A DNA stretch of 64,000 bases, from contig JANLSU010000078.1 in the NCBI GenBank assembly GCA_031362565.1, forward strand, positions 1 to 64,000, written 5' to 3'. The notes below the pieces were generated by a model. It made no database searches. It had not been told where the DNA came from and saw nothing but the letters and a program-made list of their open reading frames with translations. The translations under genes and the position numbers were made by a program. This DNA is from a bacterium. GTDB taxonomy: Bacteria > Krumholzibacteriota > Krumholzibacteriia > G020349025. Positions 1-29,903 of this stretch are shown here, piece after piece. Positions within the stretch are counted from its first letter, which is position 1; every line of letters begins with the position of its first letter.

Positions 1-1113
1 GACCGCTTTCAAAGCCAGTGCGCCGCGATTTTTGCCGTGCATCCGTTTCCGCTCCTCAAGGTGCGCTTCTACCTACACGAGGACGAATGGAAGATCGGGC
101 AACTGAACCCCATGTCGGTCGCGCAACTCGATCCGGCCGAGTTGACGCTGCTCGAACGAGAGCTGGCGGCACCGCGCTGCTTCGATCCACCGCCCCAGCC
201 CACGGCCGGTCAACTCCGGCGCGTCGCGTGCCTGTGGGATCCGGATGACCGTTTCGCCGCCTCCGACCGCGAAACCTTGGCGCGGTTCGCCGCCGCCGCA
301 CCGCGGCACGGACTGCTCTTCGAGCGCATTGGTTGCGACGATTTGCCGCGGCTCGCCGAGTTCGATGCGCTCTTCATCCGCACCGTGACGGCCATCGACC
401 ACTACTCCTTTGCGTTCGCGCAGGCTGCCGAAAGCCTCGGGATTCCAGTCATCGACGATCCGCAATCGATCCTGCGCTGCACGAACAAGGTGTACATGCA
501 CGAAGCCTTCCAGCGTGACGGCATCGCCTCGCCGCAGACGGCGATCATTTCACGCCGCTCGTCGTTCGAAGCCGCGCGCCGCATCGGTTTCCCGCTCATC
601 GTCAAGATGCCGGACGGGACTTTTTCGCAGTCGGTCAAGAAGGCCGACAACGAAGCTGAATTCGATGCGATCACCCAGGAGATGTTCCGGCGCTCGCCGC
701 TGCTGGTGATTCAGGAATTCCTGCCGACGGCCTTCGACTGGCGCATCGGTGTCCTGGCCGGCCGGCCGCTCTTCGCCTGCAAGTACCATATGGCCGAAGG
801 CCACTGGCAGATCGCCAAGATGACGCGCGACGGCGAGTCCGAATTCGGGCACGTCGAGGCGCTCGAGATCAGCGCCGTGCCGGCTCCGGTGCTGGCGCTG
901 GCACTCCGCAGTGCAGAAGTCATTGGCGATGGTCTGTATGGCGTCGATCTCAAGGAGACGCCTGCGGGGCCGGTGGTCATCGAGATCAACGACAACCCCA
1001 ATTTGCAAGTCGGCTACGAGGACGGTGTCGAGGGCGAGCGCGTCTACGATGCGATCTTGGCGGCGTTCGCGGCCCGCATCCAGAACCGGGCCGGCGCACG
1101 GGAGCACGCATGA
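1..1113 (+). CDS. RimK-family ATP-grasp ligase (5' end truncated by window)
   Basis: Frame open from base 1. ATP-grasp motifs CTNKVY, PLIVKMPDGTFS, IQEFLP..DWRIGV, LYGVDL..VIEINDNP. Confidence 0.9.
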   Translation, partial: DRFQSQCAAIFAVHPFPLLKVRFYLHEDEWKIGQLNPMSVAQLDPAELTLLERELAAPRCFDPPPQPTAGQLRRVACLWDPDDRFAASDRETLARFAAAAPRHGLLFERIGCDDLPRLAEFDALFIRTVTAIDHYSFAFAQAAESLGIPVIDDPQSILRCTNKVYMHEAFQRDGIASPQTAIISRRSSFEAARRIGFPLIVKMPDGTFSQSVKKADNEAEFDAITQEMFRRSPLLVIQEFLPTAFDWRIGVLAGRPLFACKYHMAEGHWQIAKMTRDGESEFGHVEALEISAVPAPVLALALRSAEVIGDGLYGVDLKETPAGPVVIEINDNPNLQVGYEDGVEGERVYDAILAAFAARIQNRAGAREHA

Positions 1114-2411
1114 GCGTCGATGCAACGGCCGTTGCCCCAGCGGGCCGGACGGCGAAGGGTGCAGCCAAGAAGCCCCTTTACCGGCTGTTCGAGGTGACGG
1201 GTCTCGAACTCGAGTATGCAGTCGTCGATGCGGCGCTCGAGCCCCAGTGCTTGGTCGAGAAAGCGTTTCGCGCTATTGCCGGACGGCCGACGTCCGACGT
1301 CGACTTCGAGACCATCGGCTTCTCGAACGAACTCGCGGCGCATGTGTTCGAAACCAAGACACTGGACCCGGTCGCCGACTTGGCCGACGCCGAACGGGCG
1401 CTCGTCGACGGCATCGGACGCTTTGCGGCGGTGTTGCGTGAGCGCTTCGGTGCCCGGTTGCTGCCCACCGCGATGCATCCATTCATGAAGCCGAGCGACA
1501 CGCACTTGTGGCGCCGCTCGGGGCGCGCCATCTACGAGACGTACGCGCGGCTCTTTCCAATTCACGAGCATGGCTGGCTGAACGTGCAAAGCTGCCAGGT
1601 CAATCTGCCGTTCGGGGTCTCCGAGGCGGAGACCGTCGCGTTGCACAACGCCGTCGCTTGCCTGCTGCCGTACCTGCCGGCGCTCGCCGCCAGTTCGCCT
1701 ATTTACGAAGGGCGATTCGGGCCGAGCGTCTGCAATCGGATGGCGTTCTACAAGACCAACCAACGCCGCGTCCCGGAGATTGCCGGGCGCATCGTGCCCG
1801 AATACATGACTTCGGTGGCGCAGTACCGGCGGGACGTCTTCGAACGCATCTATGCGGCGCTCGACCGCATCGAGGGGACGGCGCGGATCCGTCACGAGTT
1901 CGTCAACTCGCGCGGTGCGATCCTGCGCTTCGACCGCGATGCGATCGAAGTGCGCGTTATCGATCTGCAAGAATGTCCCAAGATGGATGTGGCGATCGCG
2001 ACCTTCGTGCGCCGCGCCGCCATGGCGCTCGTGCGCGCTTTGCAGGATGGGCGCTTGCGGTTGCCGGACCACGCGATCCTGGTCGAGGACTACGACGCTT
2101 GCGTGGTCCACGGCCGCGCCGCCCGGGTTTTCGCGCCGCACCTCGTGCTGGAAAGCCGCGCCACGGGCGGCACCGCGTCCGCCGAAACGGCGCTCACCTG
2201 CCTCTTGGACATGGCGGGCCGCGATGCGACGGCAAGCGAGGCGGCGTACCTGAAGCTGGTCGAGATGCGCTTGCGGAGCGGCAATCTCTCGGAGCGGATT
2301 CGCGCCGCGGTCGAACGCCGTGGGTCGACTGACGCCGCGCGCGCCGACGCCATTCGCGGCGTGTACACCGAACTCGCCGGCTGCCTCGACACCAACACGC
2401 CCTGGAACTGA
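1110..2411 (+). CDS. Glutamate--cysteine ligase family 2 (GCS2) carboxylate-amine ligase
   Basis: GLELEY, SNELAAHVFE, LLPTAMHPFM, HGWLNVQSCQVNLPF, RFDRDAIEVRVID. ATGA overlap with upstream gene. Confidence 0.88.
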   Translation: MSVDATAVAPAGRTAKGAAKKPLYRLFEVTGLELEYAVVDAALEPQCLVEKAFRAIAGRPTSDVDFETIGFSNELAAHVFETKTLDPVADLADAERALVDGIGRFAAVLRERFGARLLPTAMHPFMKPSDTHLWRRSGRAIYETYARLFPIHEHGWLNVQSCQVNLPFGVSEAETVALHNAVACLLPYLPALAASSPIYEGRFGPSVCNRMAFYKTNQRRVPEIAGRIVPEYMTSVAQYRRDVFERIYAALDRIEGTARIRHEFVNSRGAILRFDRDAIEVRVIDLQECPKMDVAIATFVRRAAMALVRALQDGRLRLPDHAILVEDYDACVVHGRAARVFAPHLVLESRATGGTASAETALTCLLDMAGRDATASEAAYLKLVEMRLRSGNLSERIRAAVERRGSTDAARADAIRGVYTELAGCLDTNTPWN

Positions 2412-3142
2412 TGCGATTCCGACCCGAACACTGTGTCGTGACCTGCGAACACGCGTCGAACCGCGTGCCGAAGGGCTATGGCCGGTTGGGACTGCCGGCC
2501 AGGCGGCTACGCGAGCACATCGCGTGGGATCCGGGAGCCGCCATCATGGCGAAGCGACTCGCGGCCGAGCTCGATTGTCCGCTGCATCTGGGCCGTTGGA
2601 CGCGCTTGCTCGTCGACCTGAACCGCAGCCTCGGCCACAAAAAATTGATGGCCGAGGAGAGCTTCGGCATCGCCGTCCCCGGCAATGCGGCGCTCTCGGC
2701 CGCCGAGGTTGCGCAGCGCATCCGCACCTATTACCGGCCGTATCGTGCCGCGACGACCGCCTCCATCGCCACGACCCTGCGGGAGACGGGGCGCTGCCTG
2801 CATCTCAGCATTCATTCGTTCACGCCGGTCGTCGGTGGTGTGGTGCGGGACTGCGACGTAGGGCTCCTCTATGACCCGCGCCGGCCGCACGAATTGGCCT
2901 TCGCGCGCGCCCTGCGTCCGCATCTCGCCGCCCAGGGACTGCGCGTCCGCATGAACTATCCATACCGCGGCACCGATGATGGTTTCACGACCCGGATTCG
3001 CACGACGCTGCCCGCCGCGTGGTATGCCGGCCTCGAGATCGAAACGAATCAGAAGTTCCTGAAGACTCCTGCCGGTGCAGACAAGCTCGGCCGGATCCTG
3101 GCGACGGCGGTCGCCAACGTCCTGGCCGCCGCCACCTGCTAG
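2411..3142 (+). CDS. N-formylglutamate amidohydrolase family protein
   Basis: VTCEHASN, HIAWDPGA, TRLLVDLNRS, LSIHSFTP, NYPY, EIE. TGATG coupling with upstream gene. Confidence 0.88.
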   Translation: MRFRPEHCVVTCEHASNRVPKGYGRLGLPARRLREHIAWDPGAAIMAKRLAAELDCPLHLGRWTRLLVDLNRSLGHKKLMAEESFGIAVPGNAALSAAEVAQRIRTYYRPYRAATTASIATTLRETGRCLHLSIHSFTPVVGGVVRDCDVGLLYDPRRPHELAFARALRPHLAAQGLRVRMNYPYRGTDDGFTTRIRTTLPAAWYAGLEIETNQKFLKTPAGADKLGRILATAVANVLAAATC

Positions 3143-20382: not shown

Positions 20383-21474
<1,092 letters not shown>

Positions 21475-21500
21475 TCAGAGCGGCGGCACAAAACGGCCCG

Positions 21501-21536
21501 AAAGTGGAGAGGGAGAGCTTGCGCTCTCCCGCCTCC
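21501..21536 (-). terminator. Intrinsic terminator downstream of the tandem peptide genes
   Basis: Minus strand GGAGGCGGGAGAGC-GCAA-GCTCTCCCTCTCC-ACTTT. Confidence 0.6.
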
Positions 21537-21625
21537 TAAGGATGTTCGTCAATGATGTCGGATCCTGTTGTCGTACCGATCTCGGCTCCGAGGGTGTGCC
21601 GGACGCATTCCTTGGGAGCGCGGGA

Positions 21626-21688
21626 TCAGAAAGGCACGTAACGGGGCGCGAGGCGCTTCTCCAACTTGGTCACCGTCAACTTCTTCAT
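21626..21688 (-). CDS. 20-aa peptide MKKLTVTKLEKRLAPRYVPF, downstream copy (candidate RiPP/pheromone precursor)
   Basis: GGAGGTGA SD then ATG. Same protein as 21754-21816 with only synonymous differences. Confidence 0.85.
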   Translation of the reverse strand: MKKLTVTKLEKRLAPRYVPF

Positions 21689-21753
21689 TCTTCTCACCTC
21701 CGGCGTGTTTTTTGGTCCCTGTCGCGATTCGGTTCACTGCGATCCGGTTCGGT

Positions 21754-21816
21754 TCAGAAAGGCACGTAGCGGGGCGCGAGGCGCTTCTCCAGCTTGGTCA
21801 CCGTGAGCTTCTTCAT
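21754..21816 (-). CDS. 20-aa peptide MKKLTVTKLEKRLAPRYVPF, upstream copy
   Basis: GGAGGTGA SD then ATG. Part of a 128-bp tandem unit. Confidence 0.85.
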   Translation of the reverse strand: MKKLTVTKLEKRLAPRYVPF

Positions 21817-21877
21817 TCTTCTCACCTCCGGGTGGTCTTCGGGTCTCGGTGTCTGTCGCTTCCTGGTTCTTACCTAA

Positions 21878-21893
21878 AGCATCCTGGATGCCA
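21878..21893 (-). promoter_or_regulatory. sigma54 (-24/-12) promoter candidate for the peptide genes
   Basis: Minus strand TGGCAT-CCAGG-ATGCT with exact GG-N10-GC spacing, about 60 nt upstream of the first ATG. Confidence 0.6.
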
Positions 21894-22132
21894 TTTCCGC
21901 TTCGCGACCGGCCGAACCCGGTCGAAGAGGCCCAAGTAATTGCGATGACGTCCGTTAACTTCCACGAATCGGAGCGGCGCGCGGCCGAATTCCGGCGCAT
22001 GGAGAGCGACGCTTGTCGTCTATCGACGACGCAGCAGCCAACGCACTGCGGGGTATGTGCTGTAATCTACTGTTGTGCAGCGAGTTGCGCTGTGTGTCGT
22101 GGATCGTTGTCGCGGCTGGCCGTGTTGACGTC

Positions 22133-23869
22133 TCAACGTGACGTCGGAGCGGGGTTTTTCAGCTCCGCGAGGCGGGCGCGGGCGGGCTCGAAGGCGGGGT
22201 CCAGCCGGAGTGTGGCGCGCCACGCCTGGGCAGCTTCCGTGGTCCGGCCGCGCTCGGCCTCGATGACGCCCAGGTTGTAGATGACGGTGGGCTCTGCCGG
22301 CCATTTGCGCGCGGCCTGCTCGAGAAGTTGTTCGGCCCGTTCCAAATCCCCCGCCGCGCCGCGCTCGCTCCAATAGAGCGCCAAGTTCACCTGCACCTCG
22401 AAGCGCCCGGTCAATTCGGCGGCGGCGCGTTCTTGGGCCGCGATCGCGTCACCAAGCGCGCCCGCGGCGTAGAAGCGTTCCGCCATTTGCGCCTGCTCCC
22501 AACCGCTCGCACCGCGTGCCGGCTGGCCGCCAAGCCGCGCCGCGAGGGCGAGCGGCGCAACTGCCGCCACCTGCCACGCCAAGCGCCGTATTTCTCGCTG
22601 ACGCAATCGCTCGACAACCGCCGCCACGCCCGCACCCGCCAGCAGCGCTACCTCCGGAGCCGCAATCAAGCGATGGCGCGCGGTGACGAAAAACACCAGG
22701 CTCGGAACGAGGAGCGCGGCAATCCAAACACCGATCGCCGCCGTCTGCGCGGCCACTTTGCGGCGCGCCCGCCACACACCCAATGCCGCGAGCGGCCAGA
22801 GCCATCCGAAATCCACCGCGCAGGCGCGCAACATCGGCATCCGGTGGGCTTGGAACGAGTAGCTCTCGATCTGCGAAATTTCACGGCCTTGCAACAGCAG
22901 CCAAGCCTTGCGCAACGGCAACGCCAGAGCGTCGGACGGGTGCGCCCGCATCCAAGTCCGCGCCCGTTGCATCCACACCGCCGATTGCGCCGCTTCGTCG
23001 GTGCCGGCCGCCGCGCCGACTGTCAGGGCGCGGGCGGCAACCGCGGGCGGCAGGTTCGCATCGTGCGCCGCCGCGTCGAGGACCGGACTGCGAAAAAACG
23101 TCACGCCCTCGGGTTCGTGAAAGCGGCCGTTGGCGTCTGGCCCGTTGCCGGCGAAAAAATTCACGCCGCCGTTGGTCGTGATGACGAAGCCGCCGCCAAG
23201 GCGCGCATTCCGCACCAGCACCGGCAAGATGACGACAAGACAAGAGACGGCGCACAGCCCGGCGTGTTGGAACCGCGCCGGCCCGCGCGCCGGCTTCGAC
23301 GCGATCCACGCCGCGACCGGCACCACGAGCAACGCCGTCGGCCGCAAGAGCGCCGCGGCTCCCAACGACGCACCGGCGAGTCCAACGCGCAGCGCGGGCC
23401 GGCCGCGCTCCGCGAGCACGAGCCAGAGCGCCAGAAGTGCGAGCGTCGTCAGCGGCACGTCCGGCACGAGAATGCCTTCGTAGAACAACTGCGGGCCGTA
23501 CAACGCGAACGCCACGGCCGCCGCCAGACCGGCGACTTTGCCGAACACGCCCGTCGCGAGATGCAGAACGAGCGCCACGTCGATGACGCCCAAGAGACTC
23601 TGGGCGATGCGCACCACGAATGGGTCGGCGCCGAAAATCCGGTACAACCACGACATCGCGTGCGGGTAGAGCGGCGCGAGAAAATACGGTCCCACAAAAT
23701 CGCCGTGTCCGGCCGCCAGCGAACGCGCCCAAACGTGATAGAACGCGCCGTCGAGATACGGGACGCGAAACACCGGATCGCCGTGCGTCAACGCCACGAA
23801 GAGCGCCCGCTGTGCGACGGCGGCGGCGACGACGACGCTGCCCCAACCGAAGCGCCGTGAACTTGCCAA
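22133..23869 (-). CDS. GT-C membrane glycosyltransferase (GT39/ArnT-like) with C-terminal TPR
   Basis: Multi-TM protein. PYLDGAFYHVWA, YFLAPLYP, LLRP, VRN..TTNGGVNFFAGN. TPR tail. Confidence 0.8.
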   Translation of the reverse strand: MASSRRFGWGSVVVAAAVAQRALFVALTHGDPVFRVPYLDGAFYHVWARSLAAGHGDFVGPYFLAPLYPHAMSWLYRIFGADPFVVRIAQSLLGVIDVALVLHLATGVFGKVAGLAAAVAFALYGPQLFYEGILVPDVPLTTLALLALWLVLAERGRPALRVGLAGASLGAAALLRPTALLVVPVAAWIASKPARGPARFQHAGLCAVSCLVVILPVLVRNARLGGGFVITTNGGVNFFAGNGPDANGRFHEPEGVTFFRSPVLDAAAHDANLPPAVAARALTVGAAAGTDEAAQSAVWMQRARTWMRAHPSDALALPLRKAWLLLQGREISQIESYSFQAHRMPMLRACAVDFGWLWPLAALGVWRARRKVAAQTAAIGVWIAALLVPSLVFFVTARHRLIAAPEVALLAGAGVAAVVERLRQREIRRLAWQVAAVAPLALAARLGGQPARGASGWEQAQMAERFYAAGALGDAIAAQERAAAELTGRFEVQVNLALYWSERGAAGDLERAEQLLEQAARKWPAEPTVIYNLGVIEAERGRTTEAAQAWRATLRLDPAFEPARARLAELKNPAPTSR

Positions 23870-23957: not shown

Positions 23958-26900
23958 ATGACCGATTCCGATCCGCTCTCCCGGCCCGGCGCGCTGCAGA
24001 CTCAGGAAGCCGCCGAATTTCGCCTCCTCGAACCTCTCCGCCATGAGATCGAGCGCGTCGGTTCGTTCGACCGTCTGATGCATGTCGTATTGCGCCTCGT
24101 GCAACCGCACTTTGGTGCGGCGCAAAGCGCCGTGCTCGCACCGGAGCGTGCAGGCGCCGCACTGCGGGTCGTACACCAGGTCGGCGCCCCCACCTGGGAG
24201 CCGCGTTTCGTGCAGCAAGTGTTGGAAAGCGGCCGCGCCGCGGCCCCGCCCGGCACGCTGTACGCCGTGCTGCGCGAGCACGGCCGTGCCATCGCCGTTC
24301 TACTGCTCATGCGCGCCGCACCGTACGGGCGCGCCGAACTGCGTTTGCTGCTCCGCGCCGCCGACATCGTCAATGCACGTCTCGACGCGCTTGCCGAAGC
24401 GCGTGTGGTCGACGTGCTGGCGCGCATCGATCTCAAAATCTCGCGTGAGCTGCGTACCGTCGACTTGTTGTACCAGATCCTCGATGGACTCGAGTTGCTG
24501 ACGCGCTACGACCACAGCGGCGCCATTCTGCTCTTCGACCGCGAGCGCAGTTGCCTCGAGGTGAGCGCCGAGCGCATCGTCTGGCGCAAAATGAAGAGTC
24601 CGAGCATTCACGCTATCGTACCGTTGCCGCGCGACCTCGCCGACCTCCTGCATCGCGACAACCGCGCTTTCATGCTGCGGCGCGGTGCGCCGTCCGAGGC
24701 CGGCATCGCCACCACCGTCTCGACGGCCGTGCACCCGCTCTGTGAAGTCTGGGTCGGCGACCACACCGTGCTCGACGCGTCCGAGGCGGGGGTCGCGACA
24801 CTCTTCGACAAATTGCATTACGGCGGCGGACCCGAAGTGCCGGACGAAGGCGGCATGCTGGTGGTGCCGCTCTTGTTCGGGCCGCGCTTGCTGGGGTTGC
24901 TCAAGCTCTCGGCACTGCGGCCGGACGCGTTCACGCAAAACGACGTGTATGTCGTCGGCCGGTTCGTCGAGAAGATGAGCACCAATATTCGTAATGCCAA
25001 CCTGTATGGCCGGCGGCTCGCCGAACTGCGGGCCATCAACGACATCGGCAAGCTGGTGACGCGGCCGTTGCCGCTCGAGCACACGTGCACGACGATTCTC
25101 GACATCGTGCTGCGGGTCATGAATTTGGCCACCGGCTCCATCGAGCTGATCGACCGGGACGGCGGCCGGCTGCGGCTGCTTGCATCGCGCGGCTACGCCG
25201 AGGGCAGCCACGAGGGCCTGCCGCTCGGCGAAGGCATCACGGGCTCCGTAGCGCAATCCGGCCAGCCGGTGGTCGCGAACGATGTGTCGCGCCACCCGCA
25301 ATACGTGTTGCGCAATGCCGAAACCCGTTCCGAACTCGCGGTGCCGATCGTCTTCGAAGCTGTGACGGTGGGCGTGTTGAACGTCGAATCCCTGGCGTCC
25401 GGCCGTTTCAGCGGCCGCGATCTCGATTTCCTGTCGATCCTGGCGGACAAGACCGCCGTGGCTCTGGAGACCCTCGATCAACGCGAACACCGGCGGGCGA
25501 CGCTCGATTTGTTGCATGAACTCGGCGCCCAGCTCGTCGTACCGGAAGAACTTCCCAAGCTCTTGCAACTGGTGGTGGATCTCACCCGCAAGCATTTGGC
25601 GTGCGAAGTGGCGTCCATTTTCTTGTTCGAGTCCGGGCGGTTCCGCCGCCGGGCGACGTCCGGACTGCCGGAAGATTGGTTCAGCAGCGAGAGCTACGGC
25701 ACCGGCGAAGGACTGACCGGGCTCGCCGCCGCACCCAGCGGGGCAGCGCACCTGCAAGCCCTGGTCGAAAACGCGGTGTCGCAAAACGCGCGCGTGCAAC
25801 GCGACACCTTGCAGCGCTATTCACAACAACTCGCTACCGGCCGCATCGCGCACCTGGTGGCCGTGCCGCTCGTCGAAGGCGACCGGCCGGTCGGTATCTT
25901 GCGGGTGCTGAACCGCCTGACGCGCGACGGCAGGATCGTGCCGGGCGGTTTCAGTCCGTCGGATGTCACCCTCATGACGACCATCGCGAGCCAGGTGTCG
26001 CTCGCCATCGCCAACTTCCGCAAACGCGAACGCATTCAGCGCATGAGTGTGAAGCTCGAGACCCAGGTGCGGCAACGCACCGAGGAAGCGCACCGCCTGG
26101 CGTCGCTGGTCGAAAATGCGCCGCTGGCGATTTTGGAGGTCGACGCCCAGGGCGTCCTGCGATTCATCAATGAGGCCGGCGAAAAGATGTTCGGCTACCA
26201 AGCGGCCGAACTGCGCGACCAACAGATTTCGGGAGCCGGGCTGGAACTGCTGGGCGACGCTTTCGAGGACCTGGTTCGAGTCGTCGAATTCATGGGCTAC
26301 TGGTCCGGCGAAGTAACTTACCGGCGCAGTGACGGCACGAAGTTGCCGGCGCTGTTGTCGGCGCGCGCCGTGCGAGACACCGCCGGCGTGATGCGCGGCG
26401 TCGTCATGTTCGCGCGCGACATCAGCTCGCTCAAGGATCTCGAGCGCCAACTCCTCGAGGCCGAGGGCAAGCGTGCCATGGCCGATTTGGCCGGCGGTGT
26501 GGCGCACGATCTGAATAATGCGCTCGGTTCGGTCTTGCCGATGATTCAGGCGCTGCAGTCGGACCTCGAAGAGGGCCGCTTCGACCGCGAGCAGTTCTTG
26601 ACGGACCTGCGCCAGATCGAGAGTTACACGCGGCTCTCGGTCCGGATCTTCCAGGGCATGCTGCAGATGAGCCGCGGCACGTTCGCGATCGACAAGATGG
26701 TGAGCGTCAACGAGCGCATTCGCACCGCGCTCGATCTCTTGAGCTTGCGCCTCGACAAGGCCGGGGTCCAAGTACGGCTCGAGCTGCAAGCCGACCTGCC
26801 GATGACCCTCGCCCACCCGGGACGCCTCGAGCAGGTCTTTCACAACTTGATCAACAACTCCGTCGAGGCCATGCCCGAAGGCGGCGCGCTGACGTTGCGC

Positions 26901-27164
26901 ACCTGGAGTAGCGGCCACGCGATCTTCGCCGAAGTCGAAGACACCGGTGAGGGGATTCCGGAGGAGAAACTGGCGCGCGTGCAAGAGCCGTTCTATACCA
27001 GCAAGCGGCACGGCACCGGGCTCGGACTCTCGGTGGTGCGAAGCATCGTGTGGGAACACAACGGCAAGCTCACTTTGCGGAGCGAAGCGGGCAAAGGCAC
27101 CACAGTGCACATCGAACTACCGATTCGTAACCTTGCTCCCCCCAACGACGAGGAATTGGTGTGA
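23958..27164 (+). CDS. Cytoplasmic multi-GAF + PAS sensor histidine kinase
   Basis: Several GAF domains (GEGITG, SELAVP), PAS domain, H-box GVAHDLNN, N/G boxes NLINN, DTGEGI, GTGLGL. Confidence 0.92.
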   Translation: MTDSDPLSRPGALQTQEAAEFRLLEPLRHEIERVGSFDRLMHVVLRLVQPHFGAAQSAVLAPERAGAALRVVHQVGAPTWEPRFVQQVLESGRAAAPPGTLYAVLREHGRAIAVLLLMRAAPYGRAELRLLLRAADIVNARLDALAEARVVDVLARIDLKISRELRTVDLLYQILDGLELLTRYDHSGAILLFDRERSCLEVSAERIVWRKMKSPSIHAIVPLPRDLADLLHRDNRAFMLRRGAPSEAGIATTVSTAVHPLCEVWVGDHTVLDASEAGVATLFDKLHYGGGPEVPDEGGMLVVPLLFGPRLLGLLKLSALRPDAFTQNDVYVVGRFVEKMSTNIRNANLYGRRLAELRAINDIGKLVTRPLPLEHTCTTILDIVLRVMNLATGSIELIDRDGGRLRLLASRGYAEGSHEGLPLGEGITGSVAQSGQPVVANDVSRHPQYVLRNAETRSELAVPIVFEAVTVGVLNVESLASGRFSGRDLDFLSILADKTAVALETLDQREHRRATLDLLHELGAQLVVPEELPKLLQLVVDLTRKHLACEVASIFLFESGRFRRRATSGLPEDWFSSESYGTGEGLTGLAAAPSGAAHLQALVENAVSQNARVQRDTLQRYSQQLATGRIAHLVAVPLVEGDRPVGILRVLNRLTRDGRIVPGGFSPSDVTLMTTIASQVSLAIANFRKRERIQRMSVKLETQVRQRTEEAHRLASLVENAPLAILEVDAQGVLRFINEAGEKMFGYQAAELRDQQISGAGLELLGDAFEDLVRVVEFMGYWSGEVTYRRSDGTKLPALLSARAVRDTAGVMRGVVMFARDISSLKDLERQLLEAEGKRAMADLAGGVAHDLNNALGSVLPMIQALQSDLEEGRFDREQFLTDLRQIESYTRLSVRIFQGMLQMSRGTFAIDKMVSVNERIRTALDLLSLRLDKAGVQVRLELQADLPMTLAHPGRLEQVFHNLINNSVEAMPEGGALTLRTWSSGHAIFAEVEDTGEGIPEEKLARVQEPFYTSKRHGTGLGLSVVRSIVWEHNGKLTLRSEAGKGTTVHIELPIRNLAPPNDEELV

Positions 27165-28312
27165 CGGTTCCACCGACGCCCGCGGCCTCCGAGCCGGTGC
27201 CGCGCGCCCGCATTCTCATCGTCGACGACGAGCCGGGCCTGCAGAACACCGCGCGCCGGATCCTGGCGCGCAAATACGATGTCGAGGTCGCGTCGTCGGG
27301 TGCGGAAGCGCTGGAGATCCTGGCTCGCGACCCGCAGGACCTCGCGATCGTCGACGTGCGTATGCCCGGCATGAATGGCTTCGAGCTGCTAAAGGCCATC
27401 AAAGCCGCGTACCCCGACACCGAAGTCATCATCATGACCGGATCGATCTCGAATCCGGAGGAGAAGCTGGTCGAAGCGTTACGCCAGCGCGCCTTTTATT
27501 TCATTCGCAAGCCCTTCGAGAAGACGGTGCTCGAAACACTCGTCGACCGTTGCCTCGAGCGCCAGCGTCTTGAACGCGAAAAACGCCAATGGACACAGGC
27601 ACTCGAGCACGACCTCGAGCAAGCCCGCCTGTTTCAAAAAATGCTTTTGCCGCGCAGCTTCCCGCGCGTACGGGGTTTGCGCGGTGACGCCGTCTACGTA
27701 CCTTCGGAGCGCTTGAGCGGCGATTTCTACGATTTCTTCGATCTGGGCGCATCGCGGGTCGGCATTCTGATCGCCGACGTCTCGGGCCATGGCGTGTCGG
27801 CGGCCCTCTACACCGGCATGGTGAAGTCGGAAATGCTGTTGGTGCGCGACGAATTCGAACATCCCGACGCACTCTTCGCGGATATCAGCGAGCGGTTTGT
27901 GTCGACGGCGCGGCGGCGCTACGTCACCGCGCTCTTGTTGCTGATCGACTCCGAGGCGCGGCGCATCCGGTACGTGAACGCCGGCCATCCCGGTTTTCTG
28001 GATGCCGACGGCATTTCATGGGAGTCGACCGGACCGCCCTTGGGGCTCTTGGCGGGGGCAAAGTACGAAATTGGCGAACTGCCGTTGCGCGACGGCGAGC
28101 GGTTGCTTCTGTATACCGATGGTGTCAGCGAAGCCATGCGCACCGACGGCGCCGAGTTCGGCGTCGAGCGGATCCGGGACGCTTTTTTGGCAACCGCCGG
28201 CACGCCACCCGACGCGGCAGCCCGCACCGTCGTGAACGCCGCACGCGAGTTTACTGCCGCCGCCGGATTCACCGACGACGCCACCGCCATTCTGCTCGAG
28301 TTCGGGCCGTGA
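27161..28312 (+). CDS. Response regulator with SpoIIE/PP2C phosphatase domain (RsbU/RsbP-like)
   Basis: REC domain (IVDDE, VDVRMP, KPF). PP2C motifs SGDFYD, ADVSGHG, NAGH, YTDG, DD. Confidence 0.92.
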   Translation: MTVPPTPAASEPVPRARILIVDDEPGLQNTARRILARKYDVEVASSGAEALEILARDPQDLAIVDVRMPGMNGFELLKAIKAAYPDTEVIIMTGSISNPEEKLVEALRQRAFYFIRKPFEKTVLETLVDRCLERQRLEREKRQWTQALEHDLEQARLFQKMLLPRSFPRVRGLRGDAVYVPSERLSGDFYDFFDLGASRVGILIADVSGHGVSAALYTGMVKSEMLLVRDEFEHPDALFADISERFVSTARRRYVTALLLLIDSEARRIRYVNAGHPGFLDADGISWESTGPPLGLLAGAKYEIGELPLRDGERLLLYTDGVSEAMRTDGAEFGVERIRDAFLATAGTPPDAAARTVVNAAREFTAAAGFTDDATAILLEFGP

Positions 28313-28447
28313 CCGGCGCCGGGACCCGTGGCGTCTGTCCTGTAAAAGTGCTACCCTCCCCGTGTCATCCCCTGATCGATCGCGGCCGAGATACGCCGAT
28401 CCATTCACAGCAGGGCCGTCAGGTTCGTCACTGACGGAGGAATCGGT

Positions 28448-29047
28448 ATGCGCTCTCGCGACACTCTGGTCGCGCTCGCGGCCTTCGTTTGCCTTGCAAC
28501 GGTTTGCACGCTTCCGGCCGCCGCCAACGACGGCCTCTTGGGCGTGTTTTTCGACCGCAACGGCGCTTCCTGCTCCGGGAACGTTCCAACGGCGTCGCTG
28601 GCCACTTTGCACGTAGTGCTCCTGACCGACGGCTCGACCTTTGCCGGCGTCACCGGCGCCGAACTGAGCATCGAACCCAGCGCGGCGGGGGCTTTCTTCC
28701 TCCAGGGCGAGGAAGTGGAGGCTGGCGGCCTGCAGCTCGGCAACGCGCTCCGAGGTGGGGCGACCATCGGGTTCTCGACCTGCCGTTCCGGCGCCGCGGT
28801 TTCCATCATGAGCTTTCAAGCCTTCAACCTAGGCGGCGCCCCAAACGATATCGAACTGCGTGTCCGGGCGCGGGGCACGCCCACCAACCCGTTCATGCGT
28901 TGTCCGCTGGCCGTGCTGTGCGACGACCCGCACACCGCGGTGTGCGTTACGGGGTCGAAAGCGATCCTAAACCCGAGCGCCAACCGGACCTGCCAAGGCG
29001 GGCGCGAGTCCGCCGAGTGGAGCCGGATGAAAGACCTCTATCGCTGA
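28448..29047 (+). CDS. Secreted Cys-containing protein with C-terminal WSxMKxLYR tail
   Basis: GGAGG RBS, signal peptide, ends ESAEWSRMKDLYR. Confidence 0.8.
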   Translation: MRSRDTLVALAAFVCLATVCTLPAAANDGLLGVFFDRNGASCSGNVPTASLATLHVVLLTDGSTFAGVTGAELSIEPSAAGAFFLQGEEVEAGGLQLGNALRGGATIGFSTCRSGAAVSIMSFQAFNLGGAPNDIELRVRARGTPTNPFMRCPLAVLCDDPHTAVCVTGSKAILNPSANRTCQGGRESAEWSRMKDLYR

Positions 29048-29192
29048 CCGGTTGGCCGCCCCCCCGGCCCGCCCGAAACTTCGCTTGCGTCACATTCAGT
29101 TCTCGACGCGTCGATTGAGTTGTCGCTAGAATCACCCTGCGATCGCCCCTCGGTCGTCAGGCTCGCCATGGACGGCGGGCTGGGGGTGTCGC

Positions 29193-29903
29193 GTGCAAAC
29201 GCGCGTGTTGATCGCAGATTCCACTCCTTTATGCCTGTATGGGCTCAAAGCCCTCTTGTCGCATGATCCAGAGATCAGCATTCTGGAAACCGCGACCGAC
29301 GGCGAGACTGCACTGCGCCGGGCGCTCTCCTTACAGCCCGATGTCTTCCTAAGCGAAGTCGACTTGCCGCGCCTGGGCGGGATTGCGGTGTTCGCGCGCG
29401 TGCGCCAGACCCTTCCTGCCGTGCATGGCATGTTCCTGACCACGCGGAGCAACGTCCGCCTGCGCCAACTCGCAGCGCAGGTCGGCGCGGCGGCATTCCT
29501 CACCAAAGATTCGGATCTCTCGAACTTGGCTTCGATGATCCGCAAAGTCCACGCGGGCAGCGATTACTTGCGTGCGGAGGACCCAGGGCGCGGCGCGCGA
29601 CTCGATCCGCCGCACGGAGACGTGGCGCACTGGCGTTCAGTGTTCAGCGACCGCGAAATCTTCGTCCTGCGGCAGCTCGTGCTGGGCCGTACCTCGCGCG
29701 CGATCGGCGCCATGCTCGGGCGCAGCCATCGCACCGTGGACAAGCAGCGCGAAAGCCTGCGTATCAAACTCGATCTTCACAACACGGCCGCGCTCGTGGC
29801 GTTCGGAGTCATTTTTTTACCGCAGCTCGACTTGCTCGCAAACGACCCCGAGGCGCCGATCATCCCTGACGTCTGGACGCGTCCGGAAGAGTCCGTGATT
29901 TGA
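29193..29903 (+). CDS. NarL/LuxR family response regulator (atypical receiver)
   Basis: REC domain plus LuxR HTH (FSDRE..GRTSRAIG..TVDKQRESLRIKL). Confidence 0.85.
   Translation: MQTRVLIADSTPLCLYGLKALLSHDPEISILETATDGETALRRALSLQPDVFLSEVDLPRLGGIAVFARVRQTLPAVHGMFLTTRSNVRLRQLAAQVGAAAFLTKDSDLSNLASMIRKVHAGSDYLRAEDPGRGARLDPPHGDVAHWRSVFSDREIFVLRQLVLGRTSRAIGAMLGRSHRTVDKQRESLRIKLDLHNTAALVAFGVIFLPQLDLLANDPEAPIIPDVWTRPEESVI

Follow-up and report, generated by a model that had tools for sequence, protein, structure and literature searches.

The two neighbouring minus-strand open reading frames (ORFs) described here are true, conserved 20-codon genes, and their product in this uncultured sediment bacterium is most likely a small released peptide. 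They lie in a stretch of 64,000 nucleotides that was analysed as a whole and is referred to as the window. The explanation best supported by the data, to which we assign a probability of about 60%, is a leader-guided cleavage system: the peptide would consist of a leader and a tail, and the two ORFs of the window would be extra gene copies of its precursor. A third paralog in the same genome belongs to a type of locus in which the peptide gene is followed by the gene of a membrane-bound metalloprotease, a homologue of the leader peptidase of the daptides.

Two tandem genes encode the same 20-residue peptide

The following features of the window define the two genes:

21754..21816, minus strand: putative precursor peptide gene, copy 1; 20 codons and stop, encodes MKKLTVTKLEKRLAPRYVPF
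21626..21688, minus strand: putative precursor peptide gene, copy 2; also encodes MKKLTVTKLEKRLAPRYVPF, three synonymous codons apart from copy 1
21817..21829, minus strand: ribosome-binding block GGAGGTGAGAAGA of copy 1, directly before the ATG
21689..21701, minus strand: ribosome-binding block GGAGGTGAGAAGA of copy 2, directly before the ATG

An initial annotation, made from the window sequence, had described two 63-nt ORFs on the minus strand, 128 nt apart and each preceded by GGAGGTGAGAAGA, and both were found; the distance of 128 nt is that between the two ATG codons. The ORF listing starts both at an upstream GTG inside the ribosome-binding block; the ATG start is kept in all relatives, and a GAGGTGA-like block stands 5' of most of the 22 ORFs of the peptide family (see below). 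The coding parts of the two copies are identical at 59 of 63 bases in the alignment and the four differing bases fall into three codons (Leu4 CTC/TTG, Leu9 CTG/TTG and Arg16 CGC/CGT), all synonymous, while the flanks outside the ribosome-binding block have diverged (45/60 identical upstream, with many gaps, and 29/52 downstream); the earlier description of the pair was thus accurate in this respect too. Searches with the peptide against Pfam and NCBIfam gave no match at E up to 10, so that the peptide also fails any daptide precursor model held in NCBIfam, and Rfam had no match to positions 21000-22500 of the window at E up to 1.

The peptide belongs to a small family under purifying selection

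Leader-motif ORFs were searched for in the same genome and in relatives, together with their neighbours. Across the genome, only three paralogs and one unconvincing ORF on contig C71 combine small size and a strong ribosome-binding site with the pattern [LIVM][ED]xxxAP; the third paralog, on contig C79, reads MKNLSIIKLEKRIAPRYVPFGR. A regular-expression search of 44 records identified 22 complete ORFs, each 19-22 residues long, which are spread over 13 records and number one to three at each locus; L047 has a truncated peptide ORF. A metagenome scan found 11 loci with the peptide. Among 208 genomes of the phylum, genuine hits occur only in this genome (G000) and in G002, which belongs to the same family. 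In all, 57 of the 208 genomes 'match' the peptide profile at E up to 1, and those outside G000 and G002 have E-values of 0.0198 or worse and partial ranges; they were treated as noise and not inspected singly. A pattern scan of the genome contigs returned 24 stretches, of which three passed tblastn and one was real. The other two were rejected: L007 sits within an FtsA-like ORF of 538 aa and L008 is antisense to an ORF of 465 aa.

The conserved motif of the family is KLE(K/R)R(I/L)APR(Y/W)xPF. Within the 13 C-terminal codons of 16 non-redundant ORFs (L037, L041 and L045 are left out as duplicates of L038, L039 and L044), the numbers of variable sites at codon positions 1, 2 and 3 are 3, 2 and 11, nine of the 13 residues are invariant and the changing ones are restricted to K/R, L/I, Y/W and V/L/M. 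Pairwise codon differences in this set are synonymous in 467 cases and non-synonymous in 130. From this third-position-biased variation and this excess of synonymous differences, the ORFs of the family are protein-coding genes under purifying selection. The initial annotation had concluded purifying selection from the window pair, for which the relatives are much stronger proof, and had named non-synonymous drift in relatives as evidence against a functional peptide; most of the variation seen in the relatives is at third codon positions.

The last five residues are conserved as strongly as the leader, and the second and fifth positions of this tail keep an aromatic residue. Each of the 22 ORFs has Pro-Phe as its end, in some cases extended to Pro-Phe-Gly-Arg; because the two-residue C-terminal extension is found in one paralog type (C79, and also a contig from an RNA library, see below), the peptide has no strictly fixed C-terminus. 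The five-residue tail predicted here (positions 21754-21771 and 21626-21643 of the window, and L004) resembles the arthropod neuropeptide proctolin closely, sharing four of five positions in one G002 copy, which we take to be most likely a coincidence.

Peptide genes occur in two genomic settings

Window-type loci (the window, L039, L041, L043, L044, L045 and L047) have, where flanks are present, two to three copies of the peptide gene between a PMT_2/TPR glycosyltransferase gene and the gene of malate dehydrogenase (mdh). In five of six genomes of the same family the glycosyltransferase gene is directly followed by mdh, with neither a peptide gene nor a sigma-54 motif, indicating that the cassette is an insertion into an older intergenic region. 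Glycosyltransferase and malate dehydrogenase were considered as partners of the peptide and rejected, since relatives have both adjoining without the cassette; as neighbours they are probably incidental. In one window-type locus, about 4.8 kb are inserted between the peptide genes and mdh (L043:344-5186), encoding an ORF of 466 aa without family and an ORF of 910 aa with a FlgD_ig-like end.

The remainder of the window contains several other gene groups. A flagellar cluster extends over positions 31837-63999 (MotA/B, FliD, flagellin, FlgK, rod and hook genes, FlhA/B, FliP/R, a FliA-like sigma factor and FlgD), and positions 1-3142 hold a row of RimK-like ATP-grasp, GCS2-type glutamate-cysteine ligase and N-formylglutamate amidohydrolase genes. 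Divergent from the glycosyltransferase, positions 23958-29903 encode a GAF-GAF-PAS histidine kinase (1068 aa), a receiver-SpoIIE phosphatase and a receiver-GerE regulator. Comparison of the 61 window ORFs with Pfam identified no radical SAM, P450, YcaO, Lan or ABC protein, in agreement with the initial annotation, which had seen neither a maturase nor an exporter in the window.

Activator-type loci (n = 7: C79 of the same genome, L004, L037, L038, L040, L042 and L046) have the gene of a sigma-54 activator with GAF, AAA+ and HTH_8 domains directly upstream of the peptide gene in 7/7 cases. The next gene after the peptide encodes a membrane protein in which an M50 protease is joined to a predicted leader-binding domain (RiPP recognition element, RRE), called the RRE-M50 protease below, in all four loci with enough downstream DNA (L038, L040, L042 and L046). 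In the genome of the window, contig C79 ends 38 nt past the stop codon of the third paralog, and the protease is the first gene of contig C102 (G000:C102, 775 aa); a divergent HU gene follows the protease in both C102 and L042, and C79 and C102 are therefore probably adjoining. An activator-type locus is thus composed of activator, peptide, protease and divergent HU gene only, and in none of 14 loci does a modifying enzyme adjoin the peptide.

Where enough DNA is available, in two loci (L050:2185-5460, corresponding to G000:C79, and L038:2601-5630), a divergent gene beside the activator encodes a kinase-STAND-TPR protein of about 1000-1090 residues. Between these loci, the kinases share 57% identity over 1014 residues and the activators 51%. 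This kinase is a possible sensor of the system. In G002, the candidate for this kinase was discarded: the upstream gene encodes a TPR protein only, with 27% identity over 205 residues.

The window copies are far from the protease gene. The initial annotation had suggested that processing would act in trans, and this fits, as the genome has a single RRE-M50 protease, on another contig.

A sigma-54-type promoter precedes both types of loci

Upstream and downstream of the two window genes, the following elements were identified:

21879..21893, minus strand: sigma-54-type -24/-12 element TGGCATCCAGGATGC; GG-N10-GC, 77 nt before the ATG of copy 1
21933..21942, minus strand: A/T-rich CAA-N4-TTG, candidate IHF-type bending site about 49 nt upstream of the promoter
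22015..22030, minus strand: dyad GTCGTC-N4-GACGAC, candidate activator-binding site about 137 nt upstream of the promoter
21506..21536, minus strand: stable hairpin some 90 nt downstream of copy 2, where the transcript probably ends

Alignment of the upstream regions placed TGGCA(T/C)-N6-TGC at a distance of 61-80 nt from the first ATG in 12 of the 13 loci, which include both types; in L043, the one locus without it, the upstream DNA amounts to only 152 nt. The motif at a fixed distance, the presence of rpoN in the genome and the adjacent activator all point to a promoter of the sigma-54 type, and since both locus types have it in common, the window copies may answer to the same activator in trans. 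The elements further upstream are less widespread: CAA-N4-TT(A/G) is found 39-49 nt upstream of the promoter in five of nine loci, and a dyad like GTCGTC-N4-GACGAC at -134 to -138 in four of nine (3/3 window-type, 1/6 activator-type). A brute-force search of the nine upstream regions found no 10-mer (up to one mismatch) common to more than four, and dyad and bending site thus remain candidates only.

The initial annotation had credited the gene pair with its own promoter and terminator, which has to be corrected; it had not recognised the promoter as one of the sigma-54 type. A simple scan of positions 21250-22150 identified neither a sigma-70-type promoter nor a canonical terminator; what the region does have is the sigma-54-type element and the hairpin, the latter with a folding energy of -53.5 kcal/mol (z -2.89) for a 138-nt fold. 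A further sigma-54-type promoter of the genome, on the minus strand of G000:C123 at about position 107785, has an extended sequence like that of the peptide loci and an A/T-rich block before it; it is followed by about 80 nt and then by a strong hairpin with a T run and no ORF, and is a candidate for driving a sigma-54-dependent small RNA.

Peptide genes are present in RNA libraries

Four RNA libraries from four studies, out of 20 listed runs, were compared with the window. Each has a contig of 164-209 nt with one to six differing letters on positions 21499-21748; copy 2 is wholly inside these contigs in three of the four runs and partly inside in the fourth. A further contig, from library X11, agrees with copy 1 in 52 of 60 letters. 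Its unaligned ends, compared by eye, fit the sequence on either side of the C79 paralog and, as in C79, its stop codon stands two codons past Phe; the two extra residues differ from those of C79. Apart from a partial piece of 36 letters in X17, no RNA contig covers the promoter region, the greater portion of copy 1, the glycosyltransferase part or the mdh part at 21300-21429. Such contigs give no strand, ends or level, DNA can occur in these libraries, and an uncovered part proves nothing; the 16 other listed runs, which have small shares, say nothing about habitat. The initial annotation had stated that a lack of transcription would speak against the genes: the contigs of four studies do cover copy 2, as presence in RNA libraries and not as proof of transcription.

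In activator-type loci, the neighbouring gene encodes a predicted RRE-M50 membrane protease

Family match, catalytic motifs, structure model and fold search together indicate that the membrane protein encoded next to the peptide is an RRE fused to an M50 protease; RRE-containing maturases had been recommended as a target by the initial annotation. The protein matches the NCBIfam family NF041824 ('daptide biosynthesis intramembrane metalloprotease') with an E-value of 1e-61 over model positions 9-367 of 379, at a score of 209 bits (201.5 for the copy of the window genome) compared to a curated cut-off of 300. A weaker match is to the YydH/LiaK epipeptide protease family (NF058609, E 1e-9). Pfam PF02163 matches these proteases weakly; many homologues are recorded with this family, and several with PF05402. 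Across 48 homologues, the motifs HExxH and N-x-x-P-x4-D-G have H195, E196, H199, P291, D296 and G297 invariant, and N288 and N290 nearly so.

The AlphaFold2 model of a 407-residue form (pLDDT 92.5, pTM 0.87) has an N-terminal domain (residues 9-93) of three strands (16-22, 25-32, 37-42) and three helices (43-50, 58-67, 75-87), followed by membrane helices. Foldseek hits, every one of which was at E >0.001, included for the N-terminal domain leader-bound TbiB1 (5v1v_A, target TM 0.70), 5v1u_B, the lasso protein B1 (6jx3_B), LynD (4v1v_B), PqqD (5sxy), TigE and 8vpo, with most of the best rows at a probability of 0.97-1.00; for the remainder, the site-2 proteases 3b4r_A and 8vjl_A were best, with a probability of 1.00. 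The modelled strands and helices are thus those of a PqqD-like RRE, and the modelled S2P fold together with the zinc-ligand motifs of M50 are features of a site-2 protease. Charges of leader and predicted RRE are complementary: the leader has five K/R versus one D/E, the RRE stretch of P0001 has 16 D/E versus seven K/R, and a similar acidic bias is seen in most of the close orthologues that could be anchored.

In L038 and in the copy of the window genome, the protease is continued by a HlyD-type periplasmic adaptor. Three close orthologues (P0001-P0003, 404-407 aa) are without this HlyD part, which therefore cannot be a general route of export; neither a transporter of the inner membrane nor a channel of the outer membrane was identified. 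No protease was found in G002, a genome that is 71% complete and in which the peptide contig ends 238 nt after the second ORF.

Strong homologues of the protease (E below 1e-40) are present in nine of the 208 genomes of the phylum, none of which has this peptide. A regular-expression search beside 8-11 sister proteases of the phylum found no small ORF with the leader motif, which does not show that precursors are absent. Of four sister loci examined, two have radical SAM genes beside them; in one, the protease and HlyD genes are separate and a SecA-like gene lies between the two. In L084 (G086), two B12-binding radical SAM genes are near the RRE-M50-HlyD gene; L085 (G057) has three radical SAM genes, one of them B12-binding and another with a SPASM domain, and two ORFs of 85-87 aa; in L087 (G099), a PqqD-M50 gene is followed by the SecA-like gene and then by the HlyD gene. 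A phmmer search with the protease retrieved 6764 representative clusters at E up to 1e-10, of which 1256 remain when the limit is set at 1e-30. Among the best 150, the majority have 700-850 residues, the length of the HlyD fusion, and match from about residue 10, and most of them therefore include the RRE. In our literature searches, we found this protease architecture described only in daptide papers.

Comparison with known peptide systems

Daptides are among the closest known systems. According to Ren et al. 2023 (PMC10036551), this class came to light through RRE domains that are joined to the N-terminal end of an intramembrane site-2 protease; daptide precursors have ELExMEAP before the core, with Pro as residue -1, and MpaP removes the leader. 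The systems share tandem precursor genes, a leader end (here putative) of the form xLExxxAP with Pro at -1, and, in the peptidase (MpaP/DapP), an N-terminal RRE with a site-2-type M50 domain (E 1e-61). KLEKR(I/L)AP and ELExMEAP, placed in register, agree in L, E, A and P at -7, -6, -2 and -1; the other three of the seven specified positions (-8, -4 and -3) differ, with a change from acidic to basic, and Met at -4 is described there as essential for processing by MpaB/C (PMC10036551). The initial annotation had divided the peptide into a leader ending in KLEKR(L/I)AP and a five-residue tail, a division that gains from the RRE-M50 protease next to the third-paralog type and from this likeness to daptide leaders. 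In contrast to the daptide precursors (MpaA/DapA), the peptides have no invariant C-terminal Thr and end in Phe or in Pro-Phe-Gly-Arg instead, and they have a predicted five-residue tail rather than a long aliphatic core and a basic rather than an acidic leader. Also unlike in daptides, the protease is often fused to HlyD, control is probably by sigma-54 and a GAF activator, and the host is of an FCB-group lineage and not of the Actinomycetota or Bacillota. Genes of the types DapB (DUF-RRE), DapC (oxidoreductase), DapD (aminotransferase) or DapM (methyltransferase) were not found among the neighbours of any locus. The C-terminal Phe in place of Thr and the lack of DapB/C/D/M-type genes indicate that the peptide is not a daptide.

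Epipeptides (YydF/YydH, EpeX/EpeP) likewise pair a small ribosomal peptide with an M50 membrane protease of its own, which has weak homology to the one described here, and a review states that EpeP is thought to both cleave and export (PMC10885120). They differ in needing a radical SAM epimerase and in having longer precursors (PMC10885120), and in the accessible parts of this literature we found no description of an RRE fusion of the epipeptide protease. Cittilin had served as the model for the initial annotation and is not the closest analogue: the accessible part of the preprint supports only a precursor (CitA) of 27 residues with Pro before the core, with a remote prolyl endopeptidase as a candidate enzyme (bioRxiv 10.1101/2020.05.25.114512). 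The very short precursor, the Pro before a short aromatic C-terminal core and the remotely encoded processing are alike, but cittilin needs the P450 CitB and the methyltransferase CitC beside its precursor, and nothing such is near the genes described here.

PqqA is a precursor of about 20 residues that is read by a PqqD-fold domain, as the peptide of this study would be, and PqqD (5sxy) is among the Foldseek hits; here, however, there is neither a radical SAM PqqE nor a Glu/Tyr cross-link motif, and the PqqD fold is part of the protease.

Firmicutes have pheromone circuits based on Phr/Rap pentapeptides and on SHP/Rgg peptides that are processed by the M50 protease Eep, with TPR receptors. 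Tiny precursor genes beside regulators, a short product (here predicted) and, in some, an M50 protease are shared features, and here a kinase-TPR protein is encoded beside the activator. The system described here differs in its precursor, which has no Sec signal and is not hydrophobic, in its predicted recognition by an RRE, in its sigma-54-dependent output and in the diderm envelope. Sensing of the peptide in this bacterium is pure conjecture.

Proposed mechanism and alternative explanations

The mechanism that we propose for leader-guided cleavage would start with transcription of the window copies by sigma-54 RNA polymerase from the -24/-12 promoter, most likely activated by the GAF-domain enhancer-binding protein that is encoded beside the third paralog on the other contig. 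Residues 1-15 of the peptide (M-K-K-L-x-x-x-K-L-E-K-R-I/L-A-P) would be the leader, whose strand-like start and xLExxxAP end would be bound by the N-terminal RRE of the G000:C102 protein. The M50 zinc protease would then cut after Ala-Pro and free R-Y-(V/L/M)-P-F, or R-W-M-P-F in one lineage, and in lineages with the HlyD fusion the product probably leaves the cell. Binding, cut site, export, modification and function of the peptide are in this scheme what we infer from sequences and models.

A possible but unlikely extension of this mechanism is a peptide-signalling circuit in a bacterium with two membranes. The sigma-54 activator and the kinase-STAND-TPR protein would switch on the multi-copy genes, the RRE-M50-HlyD protein would release unmodified or lightly modified R-Y-(V/L/M)-P-F, and a TPR or GAF sensor would read the peptide back in a positive feedback. 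The equal conservation of tail and leader fits a signal that is constrained by a receptor; it fits a peptide that acts at full length equally well.

We consider it rather improbable that the same leader-guided system yields a true RiPP, with the tail modified before or after cleavage by a remotely encoded enzyme, for example by cross-linking or hydroxylation of Tyr/Trp, Pro or Phe. RRE domains are typical of RiPP pathways according to the daptide paper (PMC10036551), the aromatic tail residues at positions 2 and 5 are conserved and the sister RRE-M50-HlyD genes of L084 and L085 are flanked by B12-binding radical SAM or radical SAM-SPASM genes, but the lack of any modifying enzyme next to the peptide in the 14 loci and the bare composition of the activator-type locus argue against such a modification.

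Similarly improbable is an uncut 20-mer that acts as a small basic protein and would, for instance, regulate or inhibit the RRE-protease or the signalling proteins nearby, or serve them as a bait. Cleavage is what the RRE-M50 architecture and a leader motif with Pro at -1 point to, and the two-residue C-terminal extensions of one paralog type are also at odds with an uncut peptide, even though the equal conservation of leader and tail, the tandem copies, which suggest that high dosage matters, and the lack of linkage between window copies and protease would all suit it.

Removal of the leader by a soluble prolyl endopeptidase, with the RRE-M50 protein having another substrate, is very improbable. 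Pro does precede the proposed tail, as it precedes the core of cittilin, for which the accessible part of the preprint has a remote enzyme as candidate (bioRxiv 10.1101/2020.05.25.114512); however, the protease is the immediate downstream gene in 4/4 informative loci, and apart from the three paralogs and one unconvincing hit the genome has no other small ORF with a like motif. It is barely conceivable that the two ORFs, which are upstream of mdh on the same strand, are attenuator leader peptides regulating malate dehydrogenase, as in the other locus type it is the protease gene, unrelated to mdh, that follows the same peptide, five of six same-family genomes have the glycosyltransferase directly before mdh with no peptide or sigma-54 motif, the conservation is of an amino-acid sequence and not of a run of one codon, and a stable hairpin stands between copy 2 and mdh.

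Implications

If leader-guided cleavage holds as the explanation, a leader of 15 residues and a tail of five would rank with the smallest substrates of RRE-dependent proteases, and the system would offer a minimal, testable model of how such proteases read their leaders. The predicted product is simple: it can be synthesised and sought by mass spectrometry. The family of the daptide peptidase would then reach well beyond the daptides (6764 clusters at E up to 1e-10).

The link between sigma-54, GAF activator and kinase-TPR protein suggests a regulated release of the peptide, and possibly cell-to-cell signalling, of which we know no case in this uncultured phylum. Should the signalling circuit be true, its logic would be like that of the pentapeptide pheromones of Firmicutes, built from RiPP parts, and the module would stand as one well-resolved example within a very large class that has yet to be described (1256 clusters of the protease at E up to 1e-30).
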